Assembly: GCA_963850295.1 (NCBI GenBank)
Contig: CAWKKU010000006.1
Span: 92,240-156,239 of the forward strand
DNA length: 64,000 nucleotides
DNA from: Vicinamibacterales bacterium
Lineage (GTDB): Bacteria; Acidobacteriota; Vicinamibacteria; Vicinamibacterales; JAMQPK01
Direction: 5' to 3'
The position numbers were made by a program, and so were the translations under genes. Positions 34,658 to 56,437 of the stretch are shown here, in pieces. Within the stretch, counting starts at the first letter, position 1. Every line of letters begins with the position of its first letter. The notes below the pieces were generated by a model. It was given only the letters and a program-made list of their open reading frames with translations. It searched no databases and was not told where the DNA came from.

Positions 34658-35636
34658 ATGAAACTCGCGACGTTCGAGATACCCACACCGCTCGGCCCTG
34701 TGCGCCGCATTGGTGCCGCCGTCGATGGTCACCTGGTTGATCTTGCGGCCGGATACGCGGCACACCTCGATGCGGCCGATCCCGGATGCGACGCGCAACG
34801 CCTTGCCGGGATGCTCTTTCCCTCGGATATGGTGGCGTTCATCGGCTGCGGCGAGGTTGGCCGCAAGGCCGCGGATCAGGCGATCGCAGCCGTCCGCCAG
34901 GACATCCGACGCATTTGGCGCCCGCACACGCTACAAGCCCTCAGAGGTCAGACTGCTCGCACCCGTGCCGCGTCCGCGCGTGATTCGCGACTTTCTGACG
35001 TTCGAAGGACACATGCTGAAGGCTGGTCAAGCGCTCGGCCGACCCTCGATCCCGCCCGTGTGGTACGAAGTGCCCGCGTACTATAAAGGGGATCCCGACA
35101 CGGTCTCGGGTCCCGAGGACGTGATTGAATGGCCGAAATACAGCGAGAAGTTCGATTTCGAACTCGAGCTCGCGGTGGTCATCGGAAGACGCGGCAAGAA
35201 CATCAGCAAATCCGACGCACGCCGCTACATCGCGGGCTACACCATCTGGAACGATTGGAGCGCCCGGGATCAGCAGATGAAAGAAGGCCCGCTCGGCATG
35301 GGCCCGAGCAAGGGCAAGGACTTCGACACGGGCAATACAATCGGCCCGTATCTGGTCACGGCGGACGAGCTCGACGTGAGCAACCTTCGCATGACCGCGA
35401 AGATCAACGGCGAGACCTGGACGGACTCGACGACCGCCGGCCGGCAGTTCTCGTTTGAAGATCTCATCGTGCACGTGTCGCAGAGCGAGACGATCTATCC
35501 CGGCGAGTTATGGGGATCGGGCACCACGACCGGAGGCAGCGGTCTCGAGCTCGATCGCTGGCTCAAGCCGGGAGACGTGGTGGAATTCGAAATCGAAGGC
35601 ATTGGAATATTGCGGAACCGTATAGAGAGGAGATGA
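34658..35636 (+). CDS. fumarylacetoacetate hydrolase (FAH) family protein, one frameshift
   Basis: MKLATFE... Frame change near 34910. The C-terminal domain carries FDFELELAVVIG, GYTIWNDWSARD and PGDVVEFEIEGIG. Confidence 0.8.
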
Positions 35637-35929
35637 ACATGTACGTCGTTGCTGCGGAGTACTACACGAAAGAAGGCAAGGACAAAGAAATCATCGACAT
35701 CCTGAAGAAGATGATCCCGCTTTCGCGAGCCGAACCGGGCTGCAAGCTCTACATGGTGAATCAGTCGCCCGAAGATCCGCGGAAGCTGCTGTTGTACGAA
35801 CAGTACGTCGATGAAGACGGATACAAGGCGCATCAGGCAACGGATGCCTTCAAGGAGAACATCCTCGGCAAGGTCGTTCCGAATCTCGAAAGCCGTGTCC
35901 GTCACTTCTACGAGGTCGTCGAGCCGTGA
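35633..35929 (+). CDS. antibiotic biosynthesis monooxygenase (ABM) family protein
   Basis: ATG 35633 overlaps the FAH stop (ATGA); ATG 35639 is an alternative start. EPGCKLYMVNQS and LYEQYVDEDGYKAHQ. Confidence 0.75.
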   Translation: MNMYVVAAEYYTKEGKDKEIIDILKKMIPLSRAEPGCKLYMVNQSPEDPRKLLLYEQYVDEDGYKAHQATDAFKENILGKVVPNLESRVRHFYEVVEP

Positions 35930-37434
35930 TCAAGCCGATCCTCCAGGCGTTGGCGGTAATGTCGGTGGCGGTGGGCGCGGTGTTCGCGCAGACGCCAACG
36001 CAGCAGGGGGCGCCGGCACCAGCCCCTTCAGCTCCCGCACCGGCCCGCGGACGTCAGGGTCCACCGCCGCTCGGGCCGAACGGCACGCGCGATCCGTTCC
36101 CCAATCCGATTCCGGCCGAGGAAGGTGCCATCAAGGTCAACTTCGTCGAGTTCGCGACGCTGCCGGACGTGGGCGTCAATACCGCCCGGCCGATGTTGAT
36201 GAGCTACGAGCCTGGGACCCGGCGGATGTTCGTCAACGACATGCACGGCGCGCTCTACACCGTGAGCAGCGATGGAAAGACGGTGACGCCGTATTTGGAT
36301 CACCAGGACCCCAGATGGAACCTTCAGGTGCAATTCCAGAACTTCGAACGGGGGTTCCAGAGCTTCGCGTTTCATCCCGACTTCAATCGCCGGGGCGCGC
36401 CCGGTTACGGAAAGATCTACACCTACACCGATACGAGCAACGTCACGCCGACGCCAGACTGGACACCGCCACCCGGCGCGAAGGTCGCGCACCATGCAGT
36501 GCTTCTCGAATGGACGGCGAAAAATCCCGCCGCGGCCACCTATGATGGCGTTGCGCCGCGCGAGCTCATGCGGTGGCATCGTCCGTTCGTGAATCACAAC
36601 GGCGGGCAGCTCGGCTTCAACCCGACCGCGCAACGGGGAAGCGCCGACTACGGTCTGCTGTATGCCGGCAACGCCGACGGCGGCAGCGGCGGCGATCCGA
36701 TGAACGTCGCGCAAAACCTCGGCTCCACCTTCGGCAAGATCCTTCGCATCGACCCGCTCGGCAAGAACAGCGCGAACGGCAAGTACGGCATTCCGAAAGA
36801 CAACCCGTTCGTCAGCGATGGCGATCCGAACACGCTTGGGGAGATTTACGCCTACGGCGCGCGAAACCCGCAGCGTTTCACCTGGGATAGCAAAACCCGC
36901 ACGTTCTACATGGGCGACATCGGCCAGGGCATCGTCGAAGAAGTGACGACCGTGCCGAAGGGAGCGAATCTCGGGTGGCGCGTGTGGGAAGGGAGCTACA
37001 GATTCGTGGCGGGCCAGGAAGTGAGCCTCGATACACCGCGCAGCGACCCGACGGTGACGTATCCCGTCGTCGAGTTCGCGCAGCTCGACCCGCTGCTGAT
37101 GAATAGTTCCGCCGTCACGCTGGGATACGTCTATCGGCACAACCGGCTGAAGCCGCTGTCAAACCTGCTGCTCTTCGGCGACAACCCGTCAGGGGAGATC
37201 TTCTACGTGCACGCCGACAAGCTTCCTGCCAACGGCGGCCAGGACGCGATCCGCCGCATCGTGTTCACCGACAAGGGGCAGACAAAAAAGCTGCTGGATC
37301 TCGTGCAGGAGAAGAATGTCGCGCAAGGGAAGAAGCCATCGGCGCGCGCCGACCTCCGATTCGGCGAAGGCCCGGACGGCCGCCTCTTCATCCTCAACAA
37401 ATGGGACGGCGTCATCCGCGAGCTCGTGCCCTAG
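35926..37434 (+). CDS. PQQ-dependent sugar dehydrogenase (sorbosone/glucose dehydrogenase family), secreted
   Basis: GTG 35926 overlaps the ABM stop. Signal peptide. HNGGQLGFNP, GARNPQRFTWD and GANLGW. Confidence 0.8.
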   Translation: MIKPILQALAVMSVAVGAVFAQTPTQQGAPAPAPSAPAPARGRQGPPPLGPNGTRDPFPNPIPAEEGAIKVNFVEFATLPDVGVNTARPMLMSYEPGTRRMFVNDMHGALYTVSSDGKTVTPYLDHQDPRWNLQVQFQNFERGFQSFAFHPDFNRRGAPGYGKIYTYTDTSNVTPTPDWTPPPGAKVAHHAVLLEWTAKNPAAATYDGVAPRELMRWHRPFVNHNGGQLGFNPTAQRGSADYGLLYAGNADGGSGGDPMNVAQNLGSTFGKILRIDPLGKNSANGKYGIPKDNPFVSDGDPNTLGEIYAYGARNPQRFTWDSKTRTFYMGDIGQGIVEEVTTVPKGANLGWRVWEGSYRFVAGQEVSLDTPRSDPTVTYPVVEFAQLDPLLMNSSAVTLGYVYRHNRLKPLSNLLLFGDNPSGEIFYVHADKLPANGGQDAIRRIVFTDKGQTKKLLDLVQEKNVAQGKKPSARADLRFGEGPDGRLFILNKWDGVIRELVP

Positions 37435-40653: not shown

Positions 40654-40734
40654 GCCAGGCTAGCCAGTAGCCAGTAGCCGGTAGCCAATAGTCCTGTGGC
40701 TGGTAGCCGGGAGCCGGTAGCCGGTAATCCTGTG
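40654..40734. repeat. oligomer-repeat element, GGCTAC/CCAGTAGCC family (copy 2 of 3)
   Basis: gccaggctagccagtagccagtagccggtagccaatagtcctgtggctggtagccgggagccggtagccggtaatcctgtg ends at the RBS of the MBL gene. Confidence 0.8.
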
Positions 40735-40744
40735 AGGAGATCGT

Positions 40745-41757
40745 ATGAGGCATCTATCTCTCGCCGTGCTGCTCGAGTGCTGCCCTGTCCGCGCAATCGA
40801 GCAGACACTGTCGATTCCCATGTCGCGGCGGCGAAAACTCTCGCGGCGTCGAATCCGACCCGTCTCATCGACCTCTGCGAGCCTGCCTCGTTCAGCCGGG
40901 CGACGGGACCGGCGCGCCGCGGCGGTCAGCCGCCGGCCGCACCTCAGGGTCAACCGGCGCGGGGTGCGCAGGCGACACCCGATCGTTCACAGTGGGCGCG
41001 CGAACCGCTCAAGGTGTTCGACAACCTCTTTTACGTCGGCGAGCGCGAATACTCCGCGTGGGCTGTCACCACATCGGCGGGCATCATCATCATCGACCCG
41101 ATCTATGACTACTCGGTTGAAGAACAGGTCGTGGGCGGGCTGAAGAAACTTGGACTGGATCCCGCGCAAATCAAATACGTCGTCGTCAGCCACGCGCACC
41201 GTGATCACGCAGGCGGCGCCTGGTACCTGCAGGAGCGTTTCGGCGCTCGTGTACTCCTGACCGCGCCCGATTGGGAGATGCTCGAGCGCAATACTCAGAA
41301 CTGGCCGAAGCCCAAGCGCGACATGGTCGTCGCAGACGGCCAGCAGTTGACGCTCGGCGACACGACACTCACCTTCGTCCACACGTTCGGTCACACGCCA
41401 GGCACGATGTCTACGCTGGTTCCGGTAAAGGACGGCGGGAAACCCCACATCGCAGCGCTCTGGGGAGGAACGGGATTCAATTTCACGATAACGCCGGAGC
41501 GGCCAGCGTCGTACTGGTTCGACGCCTACATCAATTCCGCGCAGCGCTTCCGCGCTGCCGCCGCAAAAGCCGGCGCGGATGTGTTTCTATCGAATCATCC
41601 GAGCTGGGACGATTCGAACGACAAGATGGCGAGACTCGCGAAGCGCCAGGCCGGCGAGCCGCATCCATACGTGATCGGCGCGAAGACGCTGCAGAACCAC
41701 TTCACGATCGCGGAGCATTGCGCCAGAGCGGGGAAAATCGCCTCGAGTACCCGGTAG
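40745..41757 (+). CDS. MBL-fold metallo-hydrolase, secreted, frameshift(s) in the leader
   Basis: ATG 40745 follows GAGGAG (MRHLSLAVLL...). One or two frame changes near 40775 join ORF 40696-41757. HAHRDHAGG and FGHTPGT. Collinear with 12653-13672. Confidence 0.75.
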
Positions 41758-43945
41758 CTAGACGCCACATCGCGCTCTCCAGATCTTTTCCGGCGTGAGC
41801 GGCAGCTCGCGCAGCTTGACGCCTGCCGCCTGGTTGATCGCCGCGCCGACCGCCGCGGCCACTGCGAGCGTTCCGCCTTCACCGGCGCCCTTCGCGCCAT
41901 ACGGTCCGGGGCCATCCGCGTTTTCGATCAGCGTGGACTCGAGATGGAGCGGCCCATCCTTGATGGACGGAATCCGGTAGTCAAGCGATCCCAGGTTGAG
42001 GATGCGGCCATCTTCGCCGAGCACGAGCTGTTCCATGAGCGTGTGGCCGAGCCCCATGACCGCGGCGCCTTCGTCCTGCGCTTCTACCTGCTGCGGGTTC
42101 AATGCCTTTCCGACGTCGCTCACGAGCGAGAGTTTCTGCACCGTGACTTCGCCGGTCTCGGGATCGACTTCAACTTCGCAGGCGGCGCACATCAGCTCCC
42201 AGAACGCCGCGCGGCCGCCGAGCGGATGCCCGGGCTCGTAGGCGTTGCCCGCTTCGCCGACGCCGATGATCTCACCCCGAGGAGGGCCGAAATACGCTTT
42301 GAGCAGCTCGACGTCCGACATGTTCTCGGCGCCGGGAATTCCCGACGCCGCCGCGCGGAGCTGCCGTTTGACGTTGTGGCACGCCTCGATCACCGCGTTG
42401 CCCATGAATACGGTCGATCGGCTGGCCGACGTCGATGAGTCGTACGGGACGACCGACGTGTCGCCCATGACGATGGCGATGCGATCGGGAGCGATGCCGA
42501 GCTCCTGCGCGGCGATCTGCAGCAGCACCGTGCGCGCTCCCTGCCCCATATCCGACGTGCCGCAGAGAACGGACGCGCTGCCGTCGAAATGGAGCCGGAC
42601 GATCGCCGTGGATCGCGATGCGGTCGAGGAGCTCTTGAGCCCGAGCGAAATACCGCGGCCGCGATTCGGCGGAAGCGGCGCCGTCCAACCGATGGCCGCG
42701 GCCGCCTTCGACAGGGCGGTATTCCAGTCGCCGTCGGCGGGCGTGTCGTCCGGACGGAAGGCTTCACCTTTCGCCGGAAGATTGCGCCGCCGAATTTCGA
42801 CAGGGTCGATGCCGAGCTTCTCGGCCGCTTCGTTCAACTGTGATTCAACGGCCCACGAAGCCTGCGGCGTGCCGAAGCCGCGAAAGGCAGTGCTTGGCGT
42901 GGTGTGCGAGAGCAGCGCGCGCGCCGACAATCCGCGCGCTCGGCACGCGATACGGGCCGCATGCCGAATAGCTCGCCTTGCTCACGACGCGGCCGCCGAT
43001 ATCGGCGTACGCGCCGAGGAGAAAGTCCGCCTGCAGGTCTTGAAAGACGATGCGGCCGCCGGTTGAAAATCCAGTGCGTGCCTTGATGCGCGCGGACGCG
43101 CGCCGCGATGCTTGAAACGACTCCTCGAGCGTCAGCACGAGACGGACGGGGCGTCCCAGCTTCAGGGCAAGCCACGCCATCAGCGGTTCCACCTTCGGCC
43201 ACCCTTTGCCGCCGAAGCCGCCGCCAGGATCGGGCGCCACGATCCGCACTCGCGCGATCGGCAGATTCAACGCCGCCGCGACGACGCGTTGAAGGACGTA
43301 AGGATGCTGCGTCGGAGTCCAGACCACGACGCCATTCGAGTCGGGAGCCGCAAGGAACGCGTGCGGCTCGATCGCGAAGTGCGTCACCATCGGAAACGCG
43401 TAGTCGCTCTCGATGACGAGATCCGCGGCGGCTATCGTCAATCGATCCCCAGTCGAACTCCCAGCGTTGGAGCGTGTTGGTATTCGCCAGCGGATCGTTG
43501 CCGCGCAACGATGGGTCCTGCACCAGAGGCGACGCTGGGTCCAACGCGGCTTCGACCGACAGGACGGCCGGCAGCTGCTCGAAGTCGATCCGCACGAGCA
43601 ACGCGGCACGTTCGGCCGCATCTTTGGTGTCGGCCACGATCGCCGCCACCGGCTCGCCGGAAAACTTCGTTTCTCCGGTTGCCAGCATCGGGCGGTCGGT
43701 TGAAACCGGTCCGTAACGCGGAACGGGTTGAGGGAGATCGGCTGCCGTGAAGATACCCCGCACGCCCGGCACGCGGGCTGCCTCATCCGTATGAACGGCG
43801 TCGATCCGGGCGTGCGCGCACAGAAGGGACACGAGCTTGACGTGCAGCGCGTTGTCCACCCGGATGTCCGCCGTGTATTGCTGCGCCCCGGTGACGCGTT
43901 CGATGCCGCCGAGCCGCGGGAGTGAGGAGCCGATGATTGGCGTAG
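41758..43945 (-). CDS. xanthine dehydrogenase/aldehyde oxidase family molybdopterin-binding large subunit, two frameshifts
   Basis: N-terminal IIGSSLPRLGGIERVTGAQQYTAD, then FAIEPH, GGGFGGK, AFRGFGTPQ and GAKGAGEGG. Frame changes near 43432 and 42930. No ATG/GTG/TTG lies upstream of IIGSS in frame, so the start is uncertain (CTG about 43945 after GAAGGAG). Confidence 0.8.
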
Positions 43946-43984
43946 TTCCTTTCAGAAAGTCTCCTTCAGTTCCACAAAATACGA

Positions 43985-44060
43985 ACAGGAGGTCAGGAGA
44001 TTAAGAGGCCTCGGCGTCTCGGCGTCGAAAGAACAGTCTCCTATTCTCCCGTTCTCCTGT
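43985..44060. repeat. hairpin-like element of GGAGA/CTCCT-type units
   Basis: acaggaggtcaggagattaagagg (43985-44008) and tctcctattctcccgttctcctgt (44037-44060) are partially complementary arms. The element overlaps the 3' tail of the 2Fe-2S gene. Confidence 0.6.
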
Positions 44061-44537
44061 TTGCATTATCCAGTTTGCATTTTCCCGTTCAGCTGCCAGC
44101 GCGACCGCGGCGATGATGCGGCTATAGCCTGCGCAGCGGCACAAGTTGCCCGCGAGGCCGTCCTTGATTTCCTCTTCGCTCGGGTCGGGATTTATCGAGA
44201 GGAGATATCGTGCTGCGACGATCATCCCGGGAATGCAGAACCCGCACTGCACCGCGCCAGTGTCGACAAACGCCTGCTGGAGGGGATCCAGCGTCCCGTG
44301 GCTGGCGAGCCCTTCGATCGTCGTAACGGCTTCGCCATCGCACTCCACCGCAAGCACAAGGCACGAATTGACCGCACGGCCGTTCAGGAGAACGGTGCAG
44401 GCGCCGCATTCGCCTTCGGTGCAGCACTCTTTCGTCCCGGTAAGCGTCAGCTGATCTCGGATGACGTCGAGCAGGCTGTGATGTGGCGCGACATCAATTC
44501 GATGCTGCGCGCCGTTGACGGTAAGCCGGACTTTCAT
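44001..44537 (-). CDS. (2Fe-2S)-binding small subunit (CoxS-like)
   Basis: ATG 44537 overlaps the FAD-subunit stop (ATGA). Cys clusters CTEGECGACTV, CGFCIPG and CRCAGY. The last about 25 aa read through a repeat element, so the true stop may be earlier. Confidence 0.85.
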   Translation of the reverse strand: MKVRLTVNGAQHRIDVAPHHSLLDVIRDQLTLTGTKECCTEGECGACTVLLNGRAVNSCLVLAVECDGEAVTTIEGLASHGTLDPLQQAFVDTGAVQCGFCIPGMIVAARYLLSINPDPSEEEIKDGLAGNLCRCAGYSRIIAAVALAAERENANWIMQTGERENRRLFFRRRDAEAS

Positions 44538-45351
44538 CGCCCCATTCGCGCGGTCGCTCTTTTCAACGCGCGGCGCGCGAGGATCGGCAGCATGGCCATG
44601 CGATAGTCGGCGCCGCCGCGAAGGTCCGATCTCGGGGTGGCGCGGCTCACGATGTCTTCGACTCGACGTGTCGCGGCGGCACTCGACCAGGATCGGCCGC
44701 GGGCCCACGGCGCCGAACGCAAATCTCGCCGTTCCAGATTCCCGCACCACGCAGCACAGATTGACGATGGCCAGGTCCACGCCGTGACGGCGGGTGAGGC
44801 GCTCGAACGCGCCCGCTGTTGGTTCGGCCGGCAGCGGCAGATCCACCGACACCACGACTTCGCCTTGCCGGAGAGCCGTGCGGCCAGGACCGGTGAAGAA
44901 ATCGTCCAGCGGCAACGAGCGCGAGCCGTCTCTGCCAATCACATTCACGACGGCGCCGTACGCCAGCAGTGCCGGAGCGGTGTCTGCCGCCGGTGACGCA
45001 TTGCACAAGTTCCCGGCAAGCGTCGCGCGGTTGCGGATCTGAACCGATCCCACGACGAGCGCGGCTTCGACGAGAGCGGGGAAGTGCTGTCTGATCGACG
45101 CGTCATCGACGATGTCCGTGATGACGGCGCGCGCGCCGATGCGGATCGTGTCGTCGATGCGCGTCACGTCCGCGCGCAGTGCAGCCACGCGCTTGAGGTC
45201 GATCGACGACGAGGCGATCGTCGATCCCTTTGCGCGCACGCACCATCAGATCGGTTCCGCCCGCAAGCAGCCGGGCATGCGGGGCGTGAGCGCTCAGCAG
45301 CGCCAGCAGCTCGTCGAGCGATTCGGGGCGGAAATATTCGAACGGTTTCAC
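44534..45351 (-). CDS. FAD-binding medium subunit (CoxM-like), two frameshifts
   Basis: GTG 45351 overlaps the upstream stop (GTGA). LLAGGTDLMV, IRNRATLAGNLCNASPAAD and SDLRGGADYRMAMLPILARRAL. Frame changes near 45215 and 44685. Confidence 0.8.
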
Positions 45352-45894
45352 AGGGCGGCCAGGCGGTGCGTCGCGTCGCGCCACAGCGGCTGTGCCAGCT
45401 CTTTCGCCGACGGCACGCCGATGCGCTCGTACATCGCGTCGATCTTCGCGATGATATCGTCCTTCGAATATTTGCCGCTTGTGCACGAATCCAATCATGA
45501 GGTCGACGTTCGTTTCGAGAAAGCTCAGGCTGTCGGCGGCCTGAACGAGGTCGGCGTCAGGCCAGCCGCCCCATTCGTGAACGCGAATCAGCGCCGCCAC
45601 GTCGGCGACGAGCTCCGGCGTGGCTCCGTTGGCGGCCAGCCACTCTCCGACGATGCGCGCGCTCCGATCGGAATGGGCCTTTTCGTAGGCGCGATCGTTC
45701 ATCACGATGGGAATGGCGTCAGGTCCGCCAAAGGCGCGCTCCATGTCGTGCGTGAGCGTCGCAAGACGCACAGCGTCCGATGCGCCCGGCGCTATCCGAT
45801 CGAGCCATTCGAGCGATTTGACGAGATGGGTCCGGTTGTACGGGTAGTTCTCTTCCACCCACAGGCGGGCCCGGTCGATGAGCGGCGGTGTCAT
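45348..45894 (-). CDS. HD-motif-containing hypothetical protein, one frameshift
   Basis: ATG 45894 lies 2 nt after the upstream TAA. LATLTHDMERAF contains an HD dyad. Frame change near 45465 restores ..KYSKDDIIAKIDAMYERIG..HRLAAL. Confidence 0.5.
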
Positions 45895-45896
45895 GT

Positions 45897-46791
45897 TTAC
45901 GGGTGGGCCAGCGTTGTGATCGGCCGGCTCTGCACCAGCAGCACCTTGTTGCCGCGGATGCACCATTCGATATCCTGAGGCGAGCCAAAGAACTGCTCGA
46001 GCCGTAATCCCAGCGTGCGCAGGTCTTCCAATTCGTTCGGCGTCAACACGGGCGCGGCGTCGCCGCCCGGAATGTACTGATCCTCGATCGAGCCGTCTTC
46101 GCGCGACACGACATAGTGGTCGGGCGTAATTTCTCCCGAGACGATCGCCTCGCCGAGCCCCGCCGCGCCTTCGATGATCATGTATTCGTATCGACCGCGG
46201 ATCGGATCGACGGTGAACATGACACCGCTCTTGTCGGCCTGCACCATTTCCTGCACCACTACAGCCATTCGTGTGTCGCTGAGCACGCCTTTCCGGGCGC
46301 GATAGAACAGGGCGCGCGGCGAAAAGAAGGACGCCCAGCATTCCTGCACGTGACGAAGCACATCCTCGATGCCGTGCACGTTCAGGTAGGTCTCCTGCTG
46401 ACCGGCGAAGCTGGCTGCCGCGCCGTCCTCGGACACCGCGCTCGACCGGACCGCGACGAGGCCGCCGCCGGCGAGGCGCGCGTACGCGGCGCCGATTTGA
46501 TCGATCAGCTGCCGGCGGAAGAGGCGCCGAGACGATACGGTCTTGTATCGCGCTCGCCGCGCGATCCATCGCACCGGAGTCCTCCACGTCGAGGCCTGCC
46601 GTGATCTCCTGAATCACACCGAGCGCGCCGCACGATTGGAGAAACCCGTGAAATGCGTCGGCGCCGATGACAAAGCCAGGAGGCACGGGAAGACCAGCCG
46701 CGGCGAGGCGGCTGAGGCTGGCGCCTTTTCCGCCGGCGACAGCCGTCGATTGTGCAGGCGCCTCGTCGAAGAAGAGAATCGCGTCAGCCAA
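45897..46791 (-). CDS. PEP synthase/PPDK N-terminal (ATP-grasp, PPDK_N) domain protein, one frameshift
   Basis: TTG 46791 overlaps the upstream stop. VAGGKGASLSRLAAAGLPVPPGFVI, VAVRSSAVSEDGAAASFAGQQETYLNV and DIEWCI. Frame change near 46513. Confidence 0.75.
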
Positions 46792-48478
46792 GGATCTCCA
46801 CGAGTCCGGATGCGCCGTTCAGCCTGACACGCTGCCCGGTCTTGATCATCTGTGTCGCGGTCCTCGTGCCGACCACCGCTGGAATGCCGAACTCGCGCGA
46901 CACGACGGCAGGATGCGACAGCGCGCCGCCGGAGTCGGTCACGAGCCCGCCGATTTTGGTGAAGAGGACGACCCACGAGGGGCTGGTCATCTTGCAGACG
47001 AGCACCTCGCCCTTCTTGACCTGATCGAACTGGTCGGCCGAGTCGACGACCCGCGCGACGCCTTCGAACACGCCGGCAGAGGCGCCAAGCCCTTTGACCG
47101 ATCCGGCCGGCTGCTTTGCCGCGTCTTTGGATCGCTCGTAGATGCCGGGCCAGTCCCACAGGACCTGTTTGTATGGTTCTCCGTACATCGACCAGTCGGT
47201 AATCGTGCCGGCCCACAGAGGCGGGCGCGCCGCGAACGCCTTCTCGCGCTCCTTGCGGCGCTGCTTGACGATCGATTTCGCGTCGAACGTGGACAGGTTG
47301 GCGCTGAGCTTCCGCAGTTCGTCGTACTTCAGGAACATGATGTCGTCGGGCTGGTTCAAGCCGCCAAGCTCGACGAGCTTGCGGCCGACGCCCATCAGCA
47401 CCAGACGCATCCGCGCGTACGTGCCCTGATCCATATAGAAATGATGGTCGGGCGTGAGCGGCGTCATCTTCAGCGCGAGGTCGAGAGCCGTCTGCAGTTT
47501 GTCTCTGTCTTCCTGTGATGTCGTAGACGGCACCAGCGACCACATCTCCTTGATCGCCGTCTCGCGGTTGTCGCGCAGTTGACGCACGTCTTTTTCGTAG
47601 TCGTAGTCCGACAGCAGATAACCGCGCAGCGCCTCGACGATCGGCGTGGGGTTTTCGCGCCAGGTCACGTAGATGTATTCGTGCGCGTACATCGACTTGT
47701 TGCCGTATTCGTTCTTGTAGTCGTCGATCTGTTTCAGCAGCCCGCGTCCTTCGTCGGATCCTTCGAGCGCCTTCATCACTCCGTCGGCGGTGTCGTTGTC
47801 GTCGAACGCGCGCTTCAGCGCGGCGCTCTGCTTCACGGTGTTCTTCAGCTTCCACAGCTCGCGGACCGAGTCCCAGTTGCGATCTTCGTCGGAAATCAGA
47901 ATGCGGCCGATCAGGGGCTTGTGCTGTTCCCCAATCATCGGGATGAGGACGCTCTCGAAGGTGATTGACGCCTGAAACTGCGCCAGGTTGAGCATCCAGT
48001 GAAGACGCCAGTGGCGCTCCTGGATGTCGATCGCCTCCTCGAGCAGAATCATCAGCTCGGGCAGCGACGCGGTGGTCATCGGAAACGTGTCGAGATACTC
48101 GAAGTTGCGCAGGATCTCCGGCAGATACCGCCGCTTCCACCAGTCGAGGAACTTGTCGGCGTAGACCGGCATCACCATGTTGTAGTACGACCACAACTCG
48201 CCTTCTTCCGCGGCCGGCCGCGGCACGACGGCGCTCAACAGGTAGCCGTTCACCGTCTTGGCGACCCAGTCCTTGCCGAACGGCACGCCGAACCGGCGAT
48301 ACATGTAGTTGCACGTCAGCCACCAGCCACCAATGTCGAACCACATCGGCGAGATCGGCTGGGGGCAGTGCAAATCGTCCAGCCAGAAGTGCAGATTCCT
48401 CTCGGCCTCGTCTTTCCACTCAATTGGCGTCGTCGCATCACCAAAGAACCGGTCCAGAATTTTGTCTCGATCACGCAT
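46784..48478 (-). CDS. PEP-utilising enzyme, mobile phospho-His domain protein (PpsA-like subunit)
   Basis: 564 aa, intact. C-terminal swivel domain GEVLVCKMTSPSWVVLFTKIGGLVTDSGGALSHPAVVSREFGIPAVVG contains the phospho-His context. Confidence 0.8.
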   Translation of the reverse strand: MRDRDKILDRFFGDATTPIEWKDEAERNLHFWLDDLHCPQPISPMWFDIGGWWLTCNYMYRRFGVPFGKDWVAKTVNGYLLSAVVPRPAAEEGELWSYYNMVMPVYADKFLDWWKRRYLPEILRNFEYLDTFPMTTASLPELMILLEEAIDIQERHWRLHWMLNLAQFQASITFESVLIPMIGEQHKPLIGRILISDEDRNWDSVRELWKLKNTVKQSAALKRAFDDNDTADGVMKALEGSDEGRGLLKQIDDYKNEYGNKSMYAHEYIYVTWRENPTPIVEALRGYLLSDYDYEKDVRQLRDNRETAIKEMWSLVPSTTSQEDRDKLQTALDLALKMTPLTPDHHFYMDQGTYARMRLVLMGVGRKLVELGGLNQPDDIMFLKYDELRKLSANLSTFDAKSIVKQRRKEREKAFAARPPLWAGTITDWSMYGEPYKQVLWDWPGIYERSKDAAKQPAGSVKGLGASAGVFEGVARVVDSADQFDQVKKGEVLVCKMTSPSWVVLFTKIGGLVTDSGGALSHPAVVSREFGIPAVVGTRTATQMIKTGQRVRLNGASGLVEILG

Positions 48479-48494
48479 AAGAGGCCTCGCTGTA

Positions 48495-48575
48495 GCGAAA
48501 AACGAACATCGAAGAACGAAAAGAGCACGCGTATCACGCGTATATTTTTCGGTTTACCTTTTTCGATTTTCGTTC
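48495..48575. repeat. hairpin-forming element of GAACGAA/TTCGTTC-family units
   Basis: gcgaaaaacgaacatcgaagaacgaaaagagc (48495-48526) faces cctttttcgattttcgttc (48557-48575). The loop holds ACGCGT-type palindromes. Same unit family as 50391-50432. Confidence 0.7.
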
Positions 48576-48961
48576 AGGGCCTGCATGCTAAACGTGCTCA
48601 CCTGGGCCGCGAGCAGGCCGTGCCGCGTGATGTATGCGTCAGCGCCCCGGTACGGTTTCGTCAGAAAATCCGCATCGACTCTCCATTGCAGGTTCACCGT
48701 ATCGCCGACAGTGAACACATGTTCCGGAGTGAATGTCACGCCAAGCAATCCGCCGTCCTTGAACGGGGCGGTCATGCCCCGGAACGCGTCGCCAACCTGC
48801 TCGCGCCCGCGAATAACCACGCCGGCCGGCAGGAAAATTTCCACGTCATCGGGGTACTGGGCCATCAGGCGGTTCCAGTCGCCCCGATTGAGCGCGTCGA
48901 GATGCTCGTCAACGACCGCCCGCGGCGTTGGCCGCGTCACGAGCTCGGGCATGTGTGCCAT
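48554..48961 (-). CDS. SnoaL-like / NTF2-fold protein
   Basis: 135 aa. VVDEHLDALNRGDWNRLMAQYPDDV is typical of SnoaL-like domains. RBS GGAGGAG. The last codons run into a repeat element. Confidence 0.6.
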   Translation of the reverse strand: MAHMPELVTRPTPRAVVDEHLDALNRGDWNRLMAQYPDDVEIFLPAGVVIRGREQVGDAFRGMTAPFKDGGLLGVTFTPEHVFTVGDTVNLQWRVDADFLTKPYRGADAYITRHGLLAAQVSTFSMQALNENRKR

Positions 48962-48980
48962 GGCTCTCCTCCAAACACGA

Positions 48981-49008
48981 AAGGCGCCGGTTTGGTAACC
49001 AGCGCCTT
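48981..49008 (-). terminator. Rho-independent terminator candidate after NHL gene
   Basis: Minus-strand AAGGCGCTGGTT-acca-AACCGGCGCCTT (12-bp stem, one mismatch) is followed by TCGTGTTTGG. Confidence 0.55.
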
Positions 49009-49016
49009 CCCAGATT

Positions 49017-49068
49017 CGACGATGGACGATGGACGATGGACGATGCGACGATGGACGATGGACGATCG
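49017..49068. repeat. tandem heptamer array (GGACGAT)n
   Basis: cgac gatggac gatggac gatggac gatgcgac gatggac gatggac gatcg lies directly after the NHL stop at 49072. Confidence 0.85.
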
Positions 49069-49071
49069 CCG

Positions 49072-50277
49072 TCAGTTCGTCGTCGCGGGTACCGCGCCGA
49101 TCCCTTTGTAATTGAATTTCTGCAGGCGCTTGCCCTCGTACGTCTCGACCGTATAGATGTTCCCCTTCGAGTCGAGCGACACGTTGTGGGGCGCGTAGAA
49201 CTGGCCGGGGCCGCGCCCGCCGCTGCCGAAGTGGCTGACGACCTGCAGCGGATCACGCAGCAGCGTCCAGATGCGATGGTTCGCGCCGTCTGAAATGAAC
49301 AGATGCCGCTGCGGCTTGTCGTTCGAGAAGGCGATATCGAAGATGACGCCGTCGCCGAGCGTGTTCTTGGCGACCTGCGTCTCCTTGACGAACGTGCCGT
49401 CTTTCCTGAAGACCTGGATGCGATTGTTCGCGCGGTCGCAGACATACACGAGTCCGTCGGCGGCGATCGACGCGCAATGCACCGTGCGAAACACTTTGGG
49501 CAGCGGCGCTGCAGGATCGTACGGGCCCGGGTCGGTATCGTCCGGCTTGTTGCCGTAGGCCCCCCAATGACGTTTGTAAGCGCCGGTGTCGGCGTCGAAG
49601 ACGATGACGCGGCGATTGCCGTAGCCATCGGCCACATACACCTCGTTCGCGGCAAGGTCGACTTCCGCTTCGGCGGCGCGGTTGAGGTTGGCCGTGTCGG
49701 TGTTCCCCTTGCTCTGGCCTTCGCGGCCGACCTGCAGCAGGAACTTGCCCTGGCGCGTGAACTTCAACATCTGATGCCCCTGATTCGTGGTGAGCCAGAC
49801 GTTGTCCTTGCCGTCAACGGTGACGCCGTGCATCGACGTCGGCCACTGGTAGCCGGCTCCGGGTCCACCCCATGACGACACGAGGTTGCCGCCAGGGTCG
49901 AACTCGAGCACCGGCGGCGCGACGTCGCAGCAGATCTCCGAAATACGGCGCTTGTCGCCCGGCTGGGGCGGGGGCGAGCCTCCCGGCTGCTGCATGCCGT
50001 TGGTGCCGGCGACCATGCCCGCTTCTTTCGGGGCGACGTTGCCGCGATGGGTGATCCAGACGTGATCGCGGGAGTCGACGCTGAGGCCGACGACCGATCC
50101 CATCACCCAGCTGTTCGGCAGCGGCTTCGGCCAGAACGGATCCACTTGATACATCGGCGCCTGAACCGTCGGCCGCGATTGCGCCGAGGTGGCGGTGTGA
50201 AGGGCGTATTGCGCAATCGCGAGCACGCTGCCGAGCGCGAGGATGCTGATGCCCGTTTTATAGTGGCGGCTCTTCAT
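49072..50277 (-). CDS. NHL-repeat beta-propeller protein, secreted
   Basis: 401 aa, intact. Signal peptide. NHL-like units (SMHGVTVDGKDNVWLT, EVYVADGYGNRRVIVFD, LVYVCDRANNRIQVF, FYAPHNVSLDSKGNIYTVE). Confidence 0.75.
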   Translation of the reverse strand: MKSRHYKTGISILALGSVLAIAQYALHTATSAQSRPTVQAPMYQVDPFWPKPLPNSWVMGSVVGLSVDSRDHVWITHRGNVAPKEAGMVAGTNGMQQPGGSPPPQPGDKRRISEICCDVAPPVLEFDPGGNLVSSWGGPGAGYQWPTSMHGVTVDGKDNVWLTTNQGHQMLKFTRQGKFLLQVGREGQSKGNTDTANLNRAAEAEVDLAANEVYVADGYGNRRVIVFDADTGAYKRHWGAYGNKPDDTDPGPYDPAAPLPKVFRTVHCASIAADGLVYVCDRANNRIQVFRKDGTFVKETQVAKNTLGDGVIFDIAFSNDKPQRHLFISDGANHRIWTLLRDPLQVVSHFGSGGRGPGQFYAPHNVSLDSKGNIYTVETYEGKRLQKFNYKGIGAVPATTN

Positions 50278-50390
50278 GATGAGTCTCTTTTTCTTGATTG
50301 TCGCGGGGCCCCACCCCCACGACCTGCCACCGCTCGCTAGCGCTCGCGGCGTTGTTTGCGACGTGATCTGTTCAGTGCGGGGTATTGTTA

Positions 50391-50432
50391 TTCCTTTTTC
50401 GTTCTTCGTTCTTCGTTCTTCGTTACTCGTTC
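50391..50432. repeat. tandem heptamer array (GTTCTTC)n
   Basis: ttcctttttc gttcttc gttcttc gttcttc gttactc gttc abuts the reconstructed cyclase stop. Confidence 0.8.
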
Positions 50433-51159
50433 AGAATCGCCACCGCGCGAACGGGAGCGGCAGATGCGCCGCGCCACTTCACCGGCAGGACGCTGACCGT
50501 GAACGAGTGATACGGCGCCGGAATCTCGTCGAGATTGCACATATTCTCGAGATGGTAGGTACTCGCGCTCGCGCATCACGCGGTGCGCCTCCCAGAACTT
50601 CTTCCGCTCGAACATCTTCGCGACCGGCGGATCGAAGCCGATGGCGTCGATGCCCATCACCTTCACGCCGCGATCCAGCAGGTAATGCACCGACTCTTTG
50701 GTCATGCCAGGGTGGTTGCTCAGGTACTCTTTGTCGAGGCGCTTCTTTGCCGCGTCCGTGCGCAGCAGGACGATGTCGAGTGCTTTGATTCTGTAGCCGC
50801 CCAGTTTCTTTTCCGCCTCTTCGATATCGCTGACGGTAATCTCCTCGCCGGCGGCTTTATGCGTGAGGTCGAGCACCACGCCGTCGCCGTAGCAATATTC
50901 GATGGGAATCCCCTCGGCGCGCGGCGCCGTCGGATTCGACGTGACCCCACGAATCGATGTGCGTGCCGATGTGATCGCCGGTGACGATCATGCAGTGGTT
51001 GGTGATCTCATGCACGCCGAATTTGTCGGTGCCGACGCTCTTCGCCATCTGACTGTAGGTTTCCATCTCGACGATGACCGGTTTGGCGACGTTCGGATAG
51101 GTCATCATCCCCTGAAACACTTCCATGCTCAAATCAATCAATCGTGGTCTGTTTGCCAT
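50423..51159 (-). CDS. cyclase family protein (kynurenine formamidase-like fold), two frameshifts
   Basis: ATG 51159. HIGTHIDSWGH metal motif, VKVMGIDAIGFDPP and LPVKWRGASAAPVRAVAIL. Frame changes near 50930 and 50565. Reconstructed stop TAA at 50423-50425. Confidence 0.75.
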
Positions 51160-51173
51160 TCAGCGAATTTCCT

Positions 51174-51207
51174 AATCCCCAATCCCCAATCCCCAATCCC
51201 CAATCCC
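51174..51207 (-). repeat. (GGGGATT)4-GGGATT tandem repeat, G-quadruplex candidate on the transcribed strand
   Basis: The plus strand reads AATCCCC x4 plus AATCCC. It sits between the SDR stop (51213) and the cyclase start (51159), 14 nt upstream of that ATG. Confidence 0.85.
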
Positions 51208-51212
51208 GATCG

Positions 51213-51968
51213 CTATTTACCTTCCCATCCGCCATCCACGTGTATGGACTGGCCGGTCAGGTAGCTCGCCTCGTCTGAGGCAAAAAATGCCGTCACCGTG
51301 CCGATTTCGCGAGGTTGGCCGGCGCGGCCGAGCGAGATCTGCTGCAGCACGAGCGGAAGGATGTCGGGGCTTTTCATGACCCATGCGGTCATGTCGGTGT
51401 CGATCAGCCCGGGATGCACGCAGTTGACGCGGATGCCCTGCGGCGTCATCTCCGCCGACATGTTGCGCGTCAGCGCCTCGAGCCCGAGCTTCGTCGGGGC
51501 GTAGTGGGTGCGCCCCGGCAGCACTTTGGCCGCCTGAATCGAGCCGATGTTCACGATGCTGCCCTTGCGCTTCTCGGCAAGCGCTCTGCGGCAGAACACC
51601 TGAGAGCACAACCACGCGCCGCGCAGGTTGACGTCGACCAGACGCGTCCACTGCTCGTCGGTGAGCTCCAGGAAGGGGACAATGGTCTCGATTCCCGCGT
51701 TGTTGACGAGGATGTCGAGGCCGCCGAGTTCTTTCCACGCCTTGTCGATCATCGATTCGACGTCAGCGCGCTTGGCCACGTCGCCCTTGACGGCGATCGC
51801 CTTCACGCCTTTGGCCTTGGCGGCCTTTGCCACCTCTTCCGCCTGCGCTGCGCTTTCGACGTAGTTCACCGCGACGTCGGCACCTTCTTCGGCGAACACT
51901 TCAGCGATGCCGCGGCCGATGCCGCGGCTCGCACCGGTGATGAGGGCTTTCTTGCCTTTGAGTCTCAT
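51213..51968 (-). CDS. SDR family oxidoreductase (glucose 1-dehydrogenase / 3-oxoacyl-ACP reductase-like)
   Basis: ATG 51968. TGASRGIGRG, NNAG and YAPTKLG (YxxxK). Intact. Confidence 0.85.
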   Translation of the reverse strand: MRLKGKKALITGASRGIGRGIAEVFAEEGADVAVNYVESAAQAEEVAKAAKAKGVKAIAVKGDVAKRADVESMIDKAWKELGGLDILVNNAGIETIVPFLELTDEQWTRLVDVNLRGAWLCSQVFCRRALAEKRKGSIVNIGSIQAAKVLPGRTHYAPTKLGLEALTRNMSAEMTPQGIRVNCVHPGLIDTDMTAWVMKSPDILPLVLQQISLGRAGQPREIGTVTAFFASDEASYLTGQSIHVDGGWEGK

Positions 51969-52013
51969 GGTTGTCCCTGGCACGGCCTGTCGGCAGGCTT
52001 GCCTGAAAGTGAC

Positions 52014-52044
52014 CCCGTGAATGCGACAGGCTCGCATTCACGGG
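52014..52044 (-). terminator. 12-bp perfect hairpin CCCGTGAATGCG-N7-CGCATTCACGGG
   Basis: Lies between the isomerase stop (52063) and the SDR start (51968). No U-tract, so it may be an attenuator or processing site rather than a terminator. Confidence 0.4.
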
Positions 52045-52062
52045 ATGCTGGTGCGTCCTGGA

Positions 52063-52965
52063 TTATGAGCGGAAAGTATAGCCGAGCGTCTGCAAGTACT
52101 TCTTGCTGATCTCTGCGGTCTGGCGCGGCGTGTAGGGCATGTTCGCAGAGCCGTCGAGCTCGTGCATGATGTTTGCGTTCGGATTCGCCTTCTCCATCGT
52201 CTCGAGGACCGACTTGAGGTCGACCTTGCCCTCGCCGAGCGGCGTGTAGCCGCCCATGTGTTCCCAGCCGCTGAAGTCTTTCAAGTGCATGTGGTCGATG
52301 ATCTTCGCGAAGTCCTTCACCATCTGCGCCGCGTCGGTGCCGCCCTTCTGCGCCTGGCCGATGTCGGGGGCGAAGTGCATGTAGCGCGTGTCGATCGCAT
52401 TCAGGACTTCGTAGGTCTCCTCACGGGTCTCCACGGCTGTCCCGGTGTGCTGGTGCAACCCGGTGCCGAGGCCCATGTCGTTGACCGCCTTGCCGTAATC
52501 GTTCAGGGCCGAAATGATGTTGGCCTTGTGCTCGGCGAAGACATAGCCCTTGCGCGGGCCATTTGGCGACTGCACGATGTAGCTGCCGCCGTGTTTCTTC
52601 AAGACCTTCGCGTAGCGCTGGAGCATCTCGATTTGCTCCTTCCGCTGCGCGGGATCGGTCACGTTCACGGTGACGAACGCCGACTTCAGCGGAATCGGAT
52701 ATTTGGCGAGCAGGGCCTCCAGCGTGCCTTTCTTGTCGTAGTCCTCGAGGATCGACGCGAACGTCTCGAAACTGTGGTAGCCGAGCTCGCTCGCGTCTTT
52801 CAGCGAAGGCTCGAGGTTCTCCGGCGTGCGCGGAACGGCGCCCCAGATCAGCATCGTGATGCCGATCTTGAGGCGTTTGGGGGACGCCTGCGCCAGAGCA
52901 AACTCCGGAAGCGCCGCTGCACCCATTCCGGCCAGGAGAGTCTTCGTGAAAGTTCGACGGTTCAT
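52063..52965 (-). CDS. sugar phosphate isomerase/epimerase (xylose isomerase-like TIM barrel), Tat signal
   Basis: MNRRTFTKTLLAGMGAAALPEFALA is a Tat leader. HMHLKD and GEGKVDL are typical of AP_endonuc_2/TIM-barrel family members. Intact. Confidence 0.8.
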   Translation of the reverse strand: MNRRTFTKTLLAGMGAAALPEFALAQASPKRLKIGITMLIWGAVPRTPENLEPSLKDASELGYHSFETFASILEDYDKKGTLEALLAKYPIPLKSAFVTVNVTDPAQRKEQIEMLQRYAKVLKKHGGSYIVQSPNGPRKGYVFAEHKANIISALNDYGKAVNDMGLGTGLHQHTGTAVETREETYEVLNAIDTRYMHFAPDIGQAQKGGTDAAQMVKDFAKIIDHMHLKDFSGWEHMGGYTPLGEGKVDLKSVLETMEKANPNANIMHELDGSANMPYTPRQTAEISKKYLQTLGYTFRS

Positions 52966-53080
52966 GAGACACACGTCCTTTCAGATTTGGATACGGCGAT
53001 TCTAATCGAGTTTACTTTAACGGTAAAGTTGAGTTACAACAGGGACTGACCGCAAAAACCTCACATCTACAGGAGATCCT

Positions 53081-56000: not shown

Positions 56001-56437
56001 GATCGAGTCGGCGGCGACGTCGCTCGACATGAACGGCAGCAATCAGATGGCCGATCAGGTGAAGGACACGGTCGAGATCCTCGGCGGAATCGGACCAGGC
56101 AATCCGTGGTTCGACACGACGGCGTTCCGTCCCGTCACCGAACGGCGCTTCGGCACCGCCGGCTTCAACAGCATGCGCGGGCCGGGTTTCGCCAACTTCG
56201 ACATGAGCGTGTTCCGGCAGTTTGCGCTGGGCAGCTGCCCGGACGCTCCAGTTTCGCCTCGAAATCTTCAACCTGACCAACACGGCGCATTTCGCCAACC
56301 CGTCGGCGAACGCGTCGAACGCCGCCAACTTCGGGATTATCACGAGCACGGCGAACAGCGGGCGCGAGGGGATTGACGAGCGGCTGTTCAGAATAGGGTT
56401 CAGGTTTGGGTTACTGAGAAGAATTTCTTCTCTGTGA
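53081..56437 (+). CDS. TonB-dependent receptor-like outer-membrane protein with N-terminal CarboxypepD_reg domain, at least four frameshifts
   Basis: Signal peptide. [22 protein letters not shown]...[14 protein letters not shown] (Carboxypeptidase regulatory-like), then a plug/barrel region. Frame changes near 55188, 55340-55358 and 56235. A 1-nt correction near 56408 would give the barrel-typical ending FRFGY with stop at 56415-56417. Confidence 0.8.

Follow-up and report, generated by a model that had tools for sequence, protein, structure and literature searches.

On the usual view, a molybdenum hydroxylase requires nothing beyond water and an electron acceptor. Why, then, should the genes for such an enzyme share a block with genes for an ATP-driven kinase? 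The question is raised by six genes on the minus strand, at 41758-48478, of a 64,000-nucleotide (nt) stretch of the genome of a soil acidobacterium (Vicinamibacterales bacterium, assembly GCA_963850295.1, contig CAWKKU010000006.1, positions 92,240 to 156,239), here referred to as the window. An obligatory ATP-driven kinase partner for a molybdenum hydroxylase has been described in one preprint, and the reason for it was never explained: in Ensifer adhaerens HP1, 3-hydroxypyridine is turned into 2,5-dihydroxypyridine by HpdA, a hydroxylase of four subunits encoded in the 3hpd cluster, and the reaction needs the adjacent genes orf10 (phosphoenolpyruvate [PEP]-utilizing) and orf9 (PPDK-like), knockout of either of which abolishes growth (Wang et al., 10.1101/2020.01.08.898148). 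We find that the block in the window is real and conserved, is present in many soil bacteria, and has been little studied, its design having been reported once before. On balance, we lean toward reading it as one functional catabolic operon, broken in the given sequence by assembly errors, whose products would phosphorylate, oxidize, and dephosphorylate a substrate.

Pfam domains found in the minus-strand frames are, in order, PEP-utilizers (the swivel domain), PPDK_N, DUF4202, FAD_binding_5, Fer2/Fer2_2, and Ald_Xan_dh_C with MoCoBD_1 and MoCoBD_2. They confirm the gene order and domain content given in a preliminary description of this DNA, which had been made from the sequence alone. The six genes are as follows (aa, amino acids; ORF, open reading frame; XDH, xanthine dehydrogenase).

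46784..48478, minus strand: swivel/substrate-binding component of the dikinase, 564 aa; intact ORF, with Pfam PEP-utilizers at 488-558
45897..46791, minus strand: ATP-grasp (PPDK_N) component of the dikinase; TTG start, one extra base near 46510
45348..45894, minus strand: DUF4202 protein, predicted HD-superfamily phosphohydrolase fold, ~181 aa; one extra base near 45483
44534..45351, minus strand: FAD-binding medium subunit of an XDH-family molybdenum enzyme; GTG start, breaks near 45203 and 44666
44001..44537, minus strand: 2Fe-2S small subunit; intact ORF with ATG start, Fer2 and Fer2_2, recovered as a single tblastn segment
41758..43955, minus strand: molybdopterin-binding large subunit; candidate CTG start at 43955, breaks near 43433 and 42925

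The genes are joined by five junctions, as the preliminary description had listed. The swivel and ATP-grasp genes meet at TTGGCTGA, where the ATP-grasp TTG start overlaps the swivel stop by 8 nt, and the ATP-grasp and HD genes meet at TAAACATG (TAAacATG); GTGA joins the HD gene to the FAD gene, and ATGA joins the FAD gene to the 2Fe-2S gene. The fifth junction is a spacer of ~45-50 nt 5′ of the molybdenum gene (given there as ~55 nt), and all five bear that description out. The molybdenum gene lacks an ATG, GTG, or TTG start; its sole candidate is the CTG at 43955-43953, 5 nt 3′ of GAAGGAG. The interval 43975-44080, which covers the tail of the 2Fe-2S gene and this spacer, is rich in insertions and deletions relative to the same-genus genome G011, with 13-nt and 22-nt differences and GGAGA/CTCCT repeats. 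In the sequence as given, only the swivel and 2Fe-2S genes are uninterrupted ORFs. The other four are broken by a total of six frame shifts, on which the preliminary description was silent and to which we return below.

The same block is present as single uninterrupted genes in four genomes of the same genus (G003, G006, G011, and G024), and it is found in two others (G017 and G004) with a rearrangement or one break. Beyond the genus, we scanned one genome per species by alignment; of the 80 loci that this gave, we counted the 33 whose swivel protein is at least 37% identical to that of the window. In 31 of these 33 loci, the swivel gene is paired with a pterin oxidoreductase: XDH-type subunit genes lie within a few kilobases of it in 27, and a tungsten-type aldehyde:ferredoxin oxidoreductase (AOR) gene directly adjoins it in 4 (Caldilineae, two Anaerolineae, and one Desulfurococcaceae archaeon). 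The remaining two loci are on contigs that end 1.6-1.8 kb past the swivel gene. The linkage of dikinase to hydroxylase genes, which the preliminary description had proposed to check in related genomes, is thus kept across several phyla. The 33 loci come from Acidobacteriota, Chloroflexota, Actinomycetota, Bacillota, Spirochaetota, Thermomicrobiota, and Pseudomonadota, plus the one archaeon. With collinear, intact copies in relatives and a pairing repeated across phyla, the six-gene block is not a chance arrangement. Nor is the pairing confined to one plasmid, since a distinct kinase clade is tied to pterin oxidoreductases in at least 7 bacterial phyla and an archaeon. Its hosts include abundant uncultured soil Acidobacteriota and Chloroflexota as well as a cultured, tractable example, Thermomicrobium roseum DSM 5159, whose megaplasmid (locus L099) carries ATP-grasp, DUF4202, FAD, fumarylacetoacetate-hydrolase-family (FAH), ABM, swivel (56% identical), molybdenum, and 2Fe-2S genes. 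The T. roseum accessions are WP_012642537 and WP_012642554 for the swivel and ATP-grasp proteins and WP_012643146, WP_012643221, and WP_012642622 for the molybdenum enzyme.

The partners themselves are varied. Two XDH lineages are represented, one of the window type with the gene order FAD-FeS-Mo (53-76% identity) and one with the order FAD-Mo-FeS (32-36% identity), and both occur in both subclades of the kinase tree. The AORs that adjoin the swivel gene are closest to true AORs (E values of 1e-105 to 1e-110) and not to BamB (2e-64); a literature search for an AOR paired with a PEP-synthase-like swivel protein found nothing relevant. Among the 33 loci, DUF4202 is encoded in 6 and a P-loop protein in 19, and the two never occur together. 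The P-loop protein (~300 aa, with a GGESNHGKSM motif) is found at L022, L023, L028-L032, L036-L042, L045, L047, and L049-L051, and has no Pfam, NCBIfam, or PDB sequence match. Recurrent accessory genes encode GntR/FCD regulators, cyclase-family and FAH-family hydrolases, and a Tm-1-like/PEP-hydrolase pair, and genes for a zinc-dependent alcohol dehydrogenase (Zn-ADH), transketolase, and transaldolase also recur in the Chloroflexota versions. In Chloroflexota-type loci (L032-L038, L040, L042, and L047-L051), the place of the short 300-aa ATP-grasp protein is taken by one of ~750 aa that combines a PPDK_N of its own with a second swivel domain and an HVO_A0261_N-like region.

What kind of kinase do the first two genes encode? 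In a PDB search, residues 230-563 of the 564-aa swivel protein align with residues 554-878 of rifampin phosphotransferase (RPH; 5HV1/5FBS) with an E value of 3e-31, whereas PEP synthase, PPDK, and Enzyme I align only over the ~100-residue swivel domain. Homologues of the protein carry PF27448 (Rph_4th, a name taken from Atlas), and relatives of 840-870 aa in which the two parts are fused match query residues 17-563, nearly the full length, downstream of an ATP-grasp domain. Near its C terminus is the catalytic-histidine motif TDSGGALSH, whose His522 does not vary across the family alignment. No NCBIfam model comes near its cutoff, those for RPH (134 versus 999), PigC/RedH, and PRK08296 among them. 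The partner is best seen in the intact orthologue from G011 (P0001, 297 aa), which has a complete PPDK_N domain (2e-85) and matches PEP synthase, the RPH ATP-grasp domain (5HV6, 1.5e-49), and the 387-aa chain 9GOJ (7e-53). In Pfam, PEP-utilizers is the sole domain of the 564-aa protein and PPDK_N the sole domain of its partner; the PEP/pyruvate-binding TIM barrel is absent from both. An ordinary PEP synthase fragment is excluded by the missing barrel, the presence of Rph_4th, and the ~330 residues aligned to RPH.

The preliminary description had proposed a two-subunit dikinase laid out like phenylphosphate synthase PpsAB, and the arrangement of a swivel/substrate-binding protein with a separate ATP-grasp protein bears this out. 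Such two-component RPH-like kinases (HpeHI, CreHI, AcvAB, and PpsAB) have been defined as a subfamily by Dexter et al. 2025 (PMC12167813). In the HpeHI-type mechanism, the ATP-grasp protein presents ATP, from which the conserved histidine of a T/SxxGGxxxH motif takes up a pyrophosphoryl group and hands its beta-phosphate on to a phenolic hydroxyl; phenolic aldehydes are also substrates of HpeHI, and the characterized phenol kinases are ~45% identical to one another (PMC12167813). Judged by its sequence, the dikinase of the window has the architecture of these two-component small-molecule kinases, and we predict that it transfers phosphate likewise. The swivel protein shares only 27% identity with a genuine PpsA, the product of a gene on an Azoarcus KH32C plasmid at a locus (L100) where ppsA adjoins ppsB, a CBS-domain gene, and ppcBDAG. 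In a quick tree of 74 swivel sequences rooted on Listeria RPH, with SH-aLRT values as the only support, the window protein falls with the swivel proteins of the 33 loci in a 34-sequence clade (support 100), and this PpsA, a Rhodococcus homologue, and 3hpd-like proteins form a separate clade (support 100). On this tree, a check of the kind called for in the preliminary description, the dikinase lies outside the PpsA clade.

All three cofactor modules of an XDH-family enzyme are present in the next genes: FAD_binding_5, two 2Fe-2S domains, and a hammerhead domain with MoCoBD_1 and MoCoBD_2. In intact orthologues, the FAD subunit has 282 aa (P0003, FAD_binding_5 and CO_deh_flav_C), the 2×[2Fe-2S] subunit 165 aa, and the molybdenum subunit 753 aa. 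We assessed the last of these by PDB and NCBIfam scores and by active-site mapping. Its best solved relative (orthologue P0005) is the alpha subunit of 4-hydroxybenzoyl-CoA reductase (HBCR), HcrA (1RM6_A, 6.5e-96), followed at ~1e-65 to 1e-69 by 6-hydroxypseudooxynicotine dehydrogenase, bovine xanthine oxidase (XO), and quinoline oxidoreductase. None of the molybdenum-enzyme subunits reached an NCBIfam equivalog cutoff, and the best NCBIfam match of the 2Fe-2S subunit, glyceraldehyde dehydrogenase gamma, was below its cutoff.

Alignment of a window-type orthologue to bovine XO (chain 1FIQ_C, residue numbers via a derived offset) showed which active-site residues are kept. Gln767, which contacts Mo=O, Arg912/Phe914 (in AFRGFG), and the catalytic Glu1261 (in GAGEGG) are retained; the substrate-binding Glu802 and Arg880 are replaced by Gly and Lys, and Phe1009 is replaced by Ser. 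Xanthine dehydrogenase proper was rejected on the replacement of Glu802 and Arg880 and on an XdhA equivalog score of 424 bits against a cutoff of 780. Aerobic CO dehydrogenase (CoxL) was rejected because the AYxCSFR loop that holds the copper-binding Cys reads AFRGFG, with no Cys, and the CO dehydrogenase models fall below their cutoffs. These residues and scores describe a competent-looking molybdenum hydroxylase whose substrate would be neither xanthine nor CO.

The third gene separates the kinase from the hydroxylase. Its product matches DUF4202 below the Pfam cutoff and has no sequence-level match in PDB, and a literature search on DUF4202 found nothing relevant. H23, H49-D50, H74, H106, and D121 are invariant in 14 DUF4202 orthologues. 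An AlphaFold model of the protein (pLDDT 95.8) superposes over its full length on HD hydrolases, with VIA Z scores of 15.5 (2PQ7 and 3B57) and 14.9 (YpgQ, 5DQW); Foldseek gave TM-scores of 0.65-0.70 with marginal E values (1.5e-3), and the fold assignment rests on the TM-scores and VIA Z. In the model, the protein has the fold and metal site of an HD-superfamily phosphohydrolase, in line with the HD-like call of the preliminary description, and we infer a phosphoester hydrolase activity.

Taken together, these parts suggest a route, each chemical step of which we infer. The ATP-grasp protein would present ATP, and His522 of the swivel protein would be pyrophosphorylated, with release of the gamma-phosphate; the beta-phosphate would then pass to a hydroxyl of the substrate, a small and probably (hetero)aromatic molecule that would sit in the RIF-binding-like domain. 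The molybdenum enzyme would oxidize (hydroxylate) the phosphorylated compound or a derivative of it, with electrons passing via the Fe-S clusters to FAD, and the HD protein would take the phosphate off. Neighboring cyclase-family and FAH-family hydrolases may process the product further. More broadly, and only tentatively, the kinase clade as a whole may represent an undescribed partnership in which a molybdenum or tungsten pterin enzyme turns over its substrate only after this has been transiently phosphorylated, the phospho-compound being what the enzyme actually oxidizes or reduces, and a third protein, HD hydrolase or P-loop protein and never both, removes or recycles the phosphate. If true, this would account for the kinase requirement for 3-hydroxypyridine and extend it to tungsten enzymes and to many more soil bacteria. 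Aromatic or heterocycle catabolism in soil would gain a new step once the substrate and the function of its phosphorylation were worked out.

Several points weigh against this reading of the block, whether of the route or of the frame breaks. The ligand set of the DUF4202 protein (H, HD, H, H, D) also suits a binuclear site such as that of HD-domain oxygenases. None of the six insertions that break the block lies in a homopolymer, and the classic pattern of long-read error is the homopolymer indel. The replacement of the molybdenum enzyme by an AOR in four anaerobe or archaeal loci is the main observation that ring hydroxylation explains poorly; to our knowledge, AOR-type enzymes do not hydroxylate rings, and genuine AOR partners point to aldehyde/carboxylate chemistry instead. 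Finally, the 3hpd study detected no intermediate, and its authors left the role of the kinase open (10.1101/2020.01.08.898148).

The AOR partners of the anaerobes keep alive an alternative that we consider unlikely but worth carrying forward, namely, that the module handles an aldehyde/carboxylate pair. Here, interchangeable molybdenum (XDH-type) and tungsten (AOR-type) enzymes would oxidize an aldehyde or reduce an activated acid, and the dikinase would phosphorylate a hydroxyl or carboxyl, giving, for example, an acyl or aryl phosphate. The four loci in which an AOR replaces the XDH-type genes beside the swivel gene fit this well, as does the closeness of those enzymes to true aldehyde:ferredoxin oxidoreductases, and aldehyde oxidation is the chemistry common to both enzyme families. 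The loss of the xanthine-binding Glu and Arg from the molybdenum subunit, the glyceraldehyde dehydrogenase gamma match of the 2Fe-2S subunit, the Zn-ADH, transketolase, and transaldolase genes of many Chloroflexota versions, and the phosphorylation of phenolic aldehydes by HpeHI (PMC12167813) are all compatible with it. However, the equivalence of the swapped partners is assumed, the sole genetic precedent (3hpd) is a ring hydroxylation, and the cyclase-family, FAH-family, and ABM neighbors suit ring catabolism better. A literature search on dikinase-coupled acid reduction found none.

It is improbable, in our estimate, that the dikinase acts on the oxidoreductase or its cofactor, in maturation, activation, or regulation, and not on a catabolic substrate. 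Such a role would accommodate the 3hpd kinase, which is essential although no phosphorylated intermediate was seen (10.1101/2020.01.08.898148), and also the pairing of one kinase clade with unrelated pterin enzymes (two XDH lineages at 32-36% identity and one AOR), for which the pterin cofactor could be the common feature. Yet the large RIF-binding-like domain with which RPH and HpeH bind small molecules is retained in the swivel protein, all characterized members of the family phosphorylate small molecules, and XDH and AOR have no shared fold for a common protein kinase to recognize.

Could the block instead be decaying, with six real frameshifts in a pseudogenized operon? Relative to the four intact orthologous blocks of the genus, including that of G011, to which the DNA aligns at ~93% nucleotide identity, single extra bases lie near 46510, 45483, 45203, 44666, 43433, and 42925, and each shifts the frame, so that the domains of four genes are split over two or three frames. 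PPDK_N is divided between a frame with model positions 3-82 and a second with 77-234, FAD_binding_5 changes frame after position 41, and the molybdenum subunit is spread over all three frames, with Ald_Xan_dh_C, MoCoBD_1, and MoCoBD_2 each in a different one. Four broken genes out of six, insertions outside homopolymers, and a molybdenum gene without a canonical start speak for decay.

The rest of the genome speaks otherwise. Over the ~45 kb of the window that can be aligned with G011, there are 47 single-base insertions and 29 single-base deletions (76 in total), and the 7 single-base indels in the 6.7 kb of the cluster are no denser than those elsewhere in the window. Many long G011 ORFs map onto the window in two to five frames; one of 1447 aa maps to 52069-56410 in five segments. 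Even the essential rpoC, outside the window (G000:C6 ~250542-250549), is split over two frames at model position ~644 in the source genome only; in G006 and G024 it reads through as one frame of 1407-1421 aa. A CoxG gene on another contig (contig 9) is also split between frames. With the extra bases skipped, the ratio of nonsynonymous to synonymous substitution rates (dN/dS) against G011 is 0.09 for the swivel gene, 0.19 for ATP-grasp, 0.13 for HD, 0.28 for FAD, 0.12 for 2Fe-2S, and 0.07 for the molybdenum gene, so that by this measure (0.07-0.28 in all six) the broken genes are no more relaxed than the intact ones. The operon has no in-frame stops and no large deletions.

Because frames break throughout the window, rpoC is broken too, and dN/dS is low in all six genes, the six breaks are almost certainly consensus errors of the assembly and not gene decay, and we regard true pseudogenization as a slim prospect. 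Programmed frameshifting and an alternative genetic code were both rejected, since the extra bases are missing from the orthologues and frames are broken throughout the genome. The source genome is in 16 contigs yet 84% complete, and the names of its close relatives are those of a soil series of metagenome-assembled genomes that we take to be derived from long-read sequencing. Against its nearest relative, the assembly shows ~1-2 single-base indels in each kb, some of which may not be its own errors, and gene calls from it need frame correction.

The preliminary description had also drawn an analogy with anaerobic phenol degradation, in which a phenylphosphate-synthase-like activation would be followed by an HBCR-like reductive dehydroxylation; the HcrA relationship of the molybdenum subunit (1RM6_A) and the PpsAB layout of the dikinase recommend it, but it is largely refuted, and we give it very little weight, for it fails on every defining feature tested: no UbiD-family match in the whole source genome (84% complete), no CBS-domain PpsC or CoA ligase in the block, no 4Fe-4S insert in the FAD orthologue P0003 (282 aa; 119 bits against a TIGR03195 cutoff of 405, best stretch residues 13-128), HBCR alpha and gamma models below their cutoffs (417 versus 995 and 176 versus 258), and a swivel protein only 27% identical to PpsA and in another clade. 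A literature search for phenylphosphate synthase with an XDH-family enzyme found nothing relevant.

Around the block, the genus shares a conserved run of genes in the order SDR, cyclase, NHL, SnoaL, the six genes, metallo-beta-lactamase fold, and, further on, FAH. Three features of this neighborhood have defined positions.

50388..51170, minus strand: cyclase-family (kynurenine-formamidase-like) hydrolase, Pfam Cyclase
34710..35636, plus strand: fumarylacetoacetate-hydrolase-family protein, Pfam FAA_hydrolase
48526..48542, minus strand: hairpin with T-tract, terminator-like, between the SnoaL-like gene and the swivel gene

Homologues of the cyclase-family hydrolase (42-59% identity) lie beside the swivel gene in 10 other loci, including that of T. 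roseum (L099), and homologues of the FAH-family protein, a more distant neighbor (56-72% identity), are found in Thermomicrobium, Gaiellaceae-type, and Thermogemmatispora clusters. The upstream genes on the minus strand, at 48554-52974, are SnoaL-like, NHL/SGL-type beta-propeller, cyclase-family, SDR, and xylose-isomerase-like TIM-barrel genes. The hairpin may mark the upstream boundary of the transcription unit; terminator-like sites in the region are no more numerous than expected from shuffled sequence. It is held in a 52-nt stretch (48494-48545) with a perfect short palindrome, ACGCGTGATACGCGT, and a T-tract, which is absent from the 93%-identical G011.

On the other side, at 40696-41757 on the plus strand, is a subclass-B3-like metallo-beta-lactamase-fold gene for which all NCBIfam models are below cutoff. 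It is convergent with the molybdenum gene, stop to stop, in the window and in G011 and lies on the operon strand in G003 and G024; in G003 it is fused to the molybdenum subunit in one ORF of 1071 aa. A paralogue (42% identity) is at 12659-13645 of the window. Between the metallo-beta-lactamase-fold and SDR genes, G011 (L010 11484-12956) has one more glucose/sorbosone-dehydrogenase-like paralogue, which shares 68-73% identity with the gene at 35926-37434 of the window and has no counterpart there.

How does the operon compare with systems already described? HcrABC (1RM6) shares its three-subunit composition and includes the best solved relative of its molybdenum subunit; it differs in that the FAD subunit of the window lacks the 4Fe-4S loop, all three equivalog models fall below cutoff, genes for CoA esters are missing, and the genes of phenol carboxylation are absent from the host lineage. 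RPH (5HV1 and 5FBS) has the same ATP-grasp, substrate-binding (including Rph_4th), and swivel domains, with a presumed common His-mediated mechanism, but is a single chain of 860-880 aa with the ATP-grasp domain first, whereas in the window ATP-grasp is a separate downstream gene. HpeHI (Rhodococcus rhodochrous GD02), CreHI (Corynebacterium glutamicum), AcvAB (Sphingobium), and PpsAB (Thauera/Azoarcus) are closer in form, each combining an ATP-grasp protein with a RIF-binding-like/swivel protein. With these systems, the window shares the T/SxxGGxxxH motif and a swivel gene that comes first; the residue that precedes its catalytic His is Ser, which is also the case for PpsA and CreH. The window kinase is partnered by a pterin oxidoreductase, not by a carboxylase or a P450-type system, and its swivel protein is ~27% identical to PpsA and in a separate clade.

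Of the systems described so far, the 3hpd cluster of Ensifer adhaerens comes closest. In both, a split PEP-utilizing/PPDK-like dikinase adjoins genes for FAD, 2Fe-2S, and molybdenum subunits, with a GntR regulator nearby. The 3hpd cluster has an SRPBCC/CoxG subunit between its FAD and 2Fe-2S genes, whereas the block in the window has no such ORF, the sole CoxG match of the genome being on contig 9. The window, for its part, has the HD gene inside the operon, and maleamate-pathway genes were not seen among its neighbors in a Pfam scan, no dedicated search having been made. A locus in our scan (L083) reproduces the 3hpd gene order (swivel, ATP-grasp, FAD, CoxG, 2Fe-2S, and Mo) and adds a DUF4202 gene after the molybdenum gene. 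Against this 3hpd-like locus, the swivel protein of the window is ~26% identical and the molybdenum subunit ~30%, and the swivel proteins belong to different clades; this low identity and the separate clade suggest that the substrate in the window is probably not that of 3hpd. The operon of the window is thus a second, phylogenetically separate instance of the 3hpd design.

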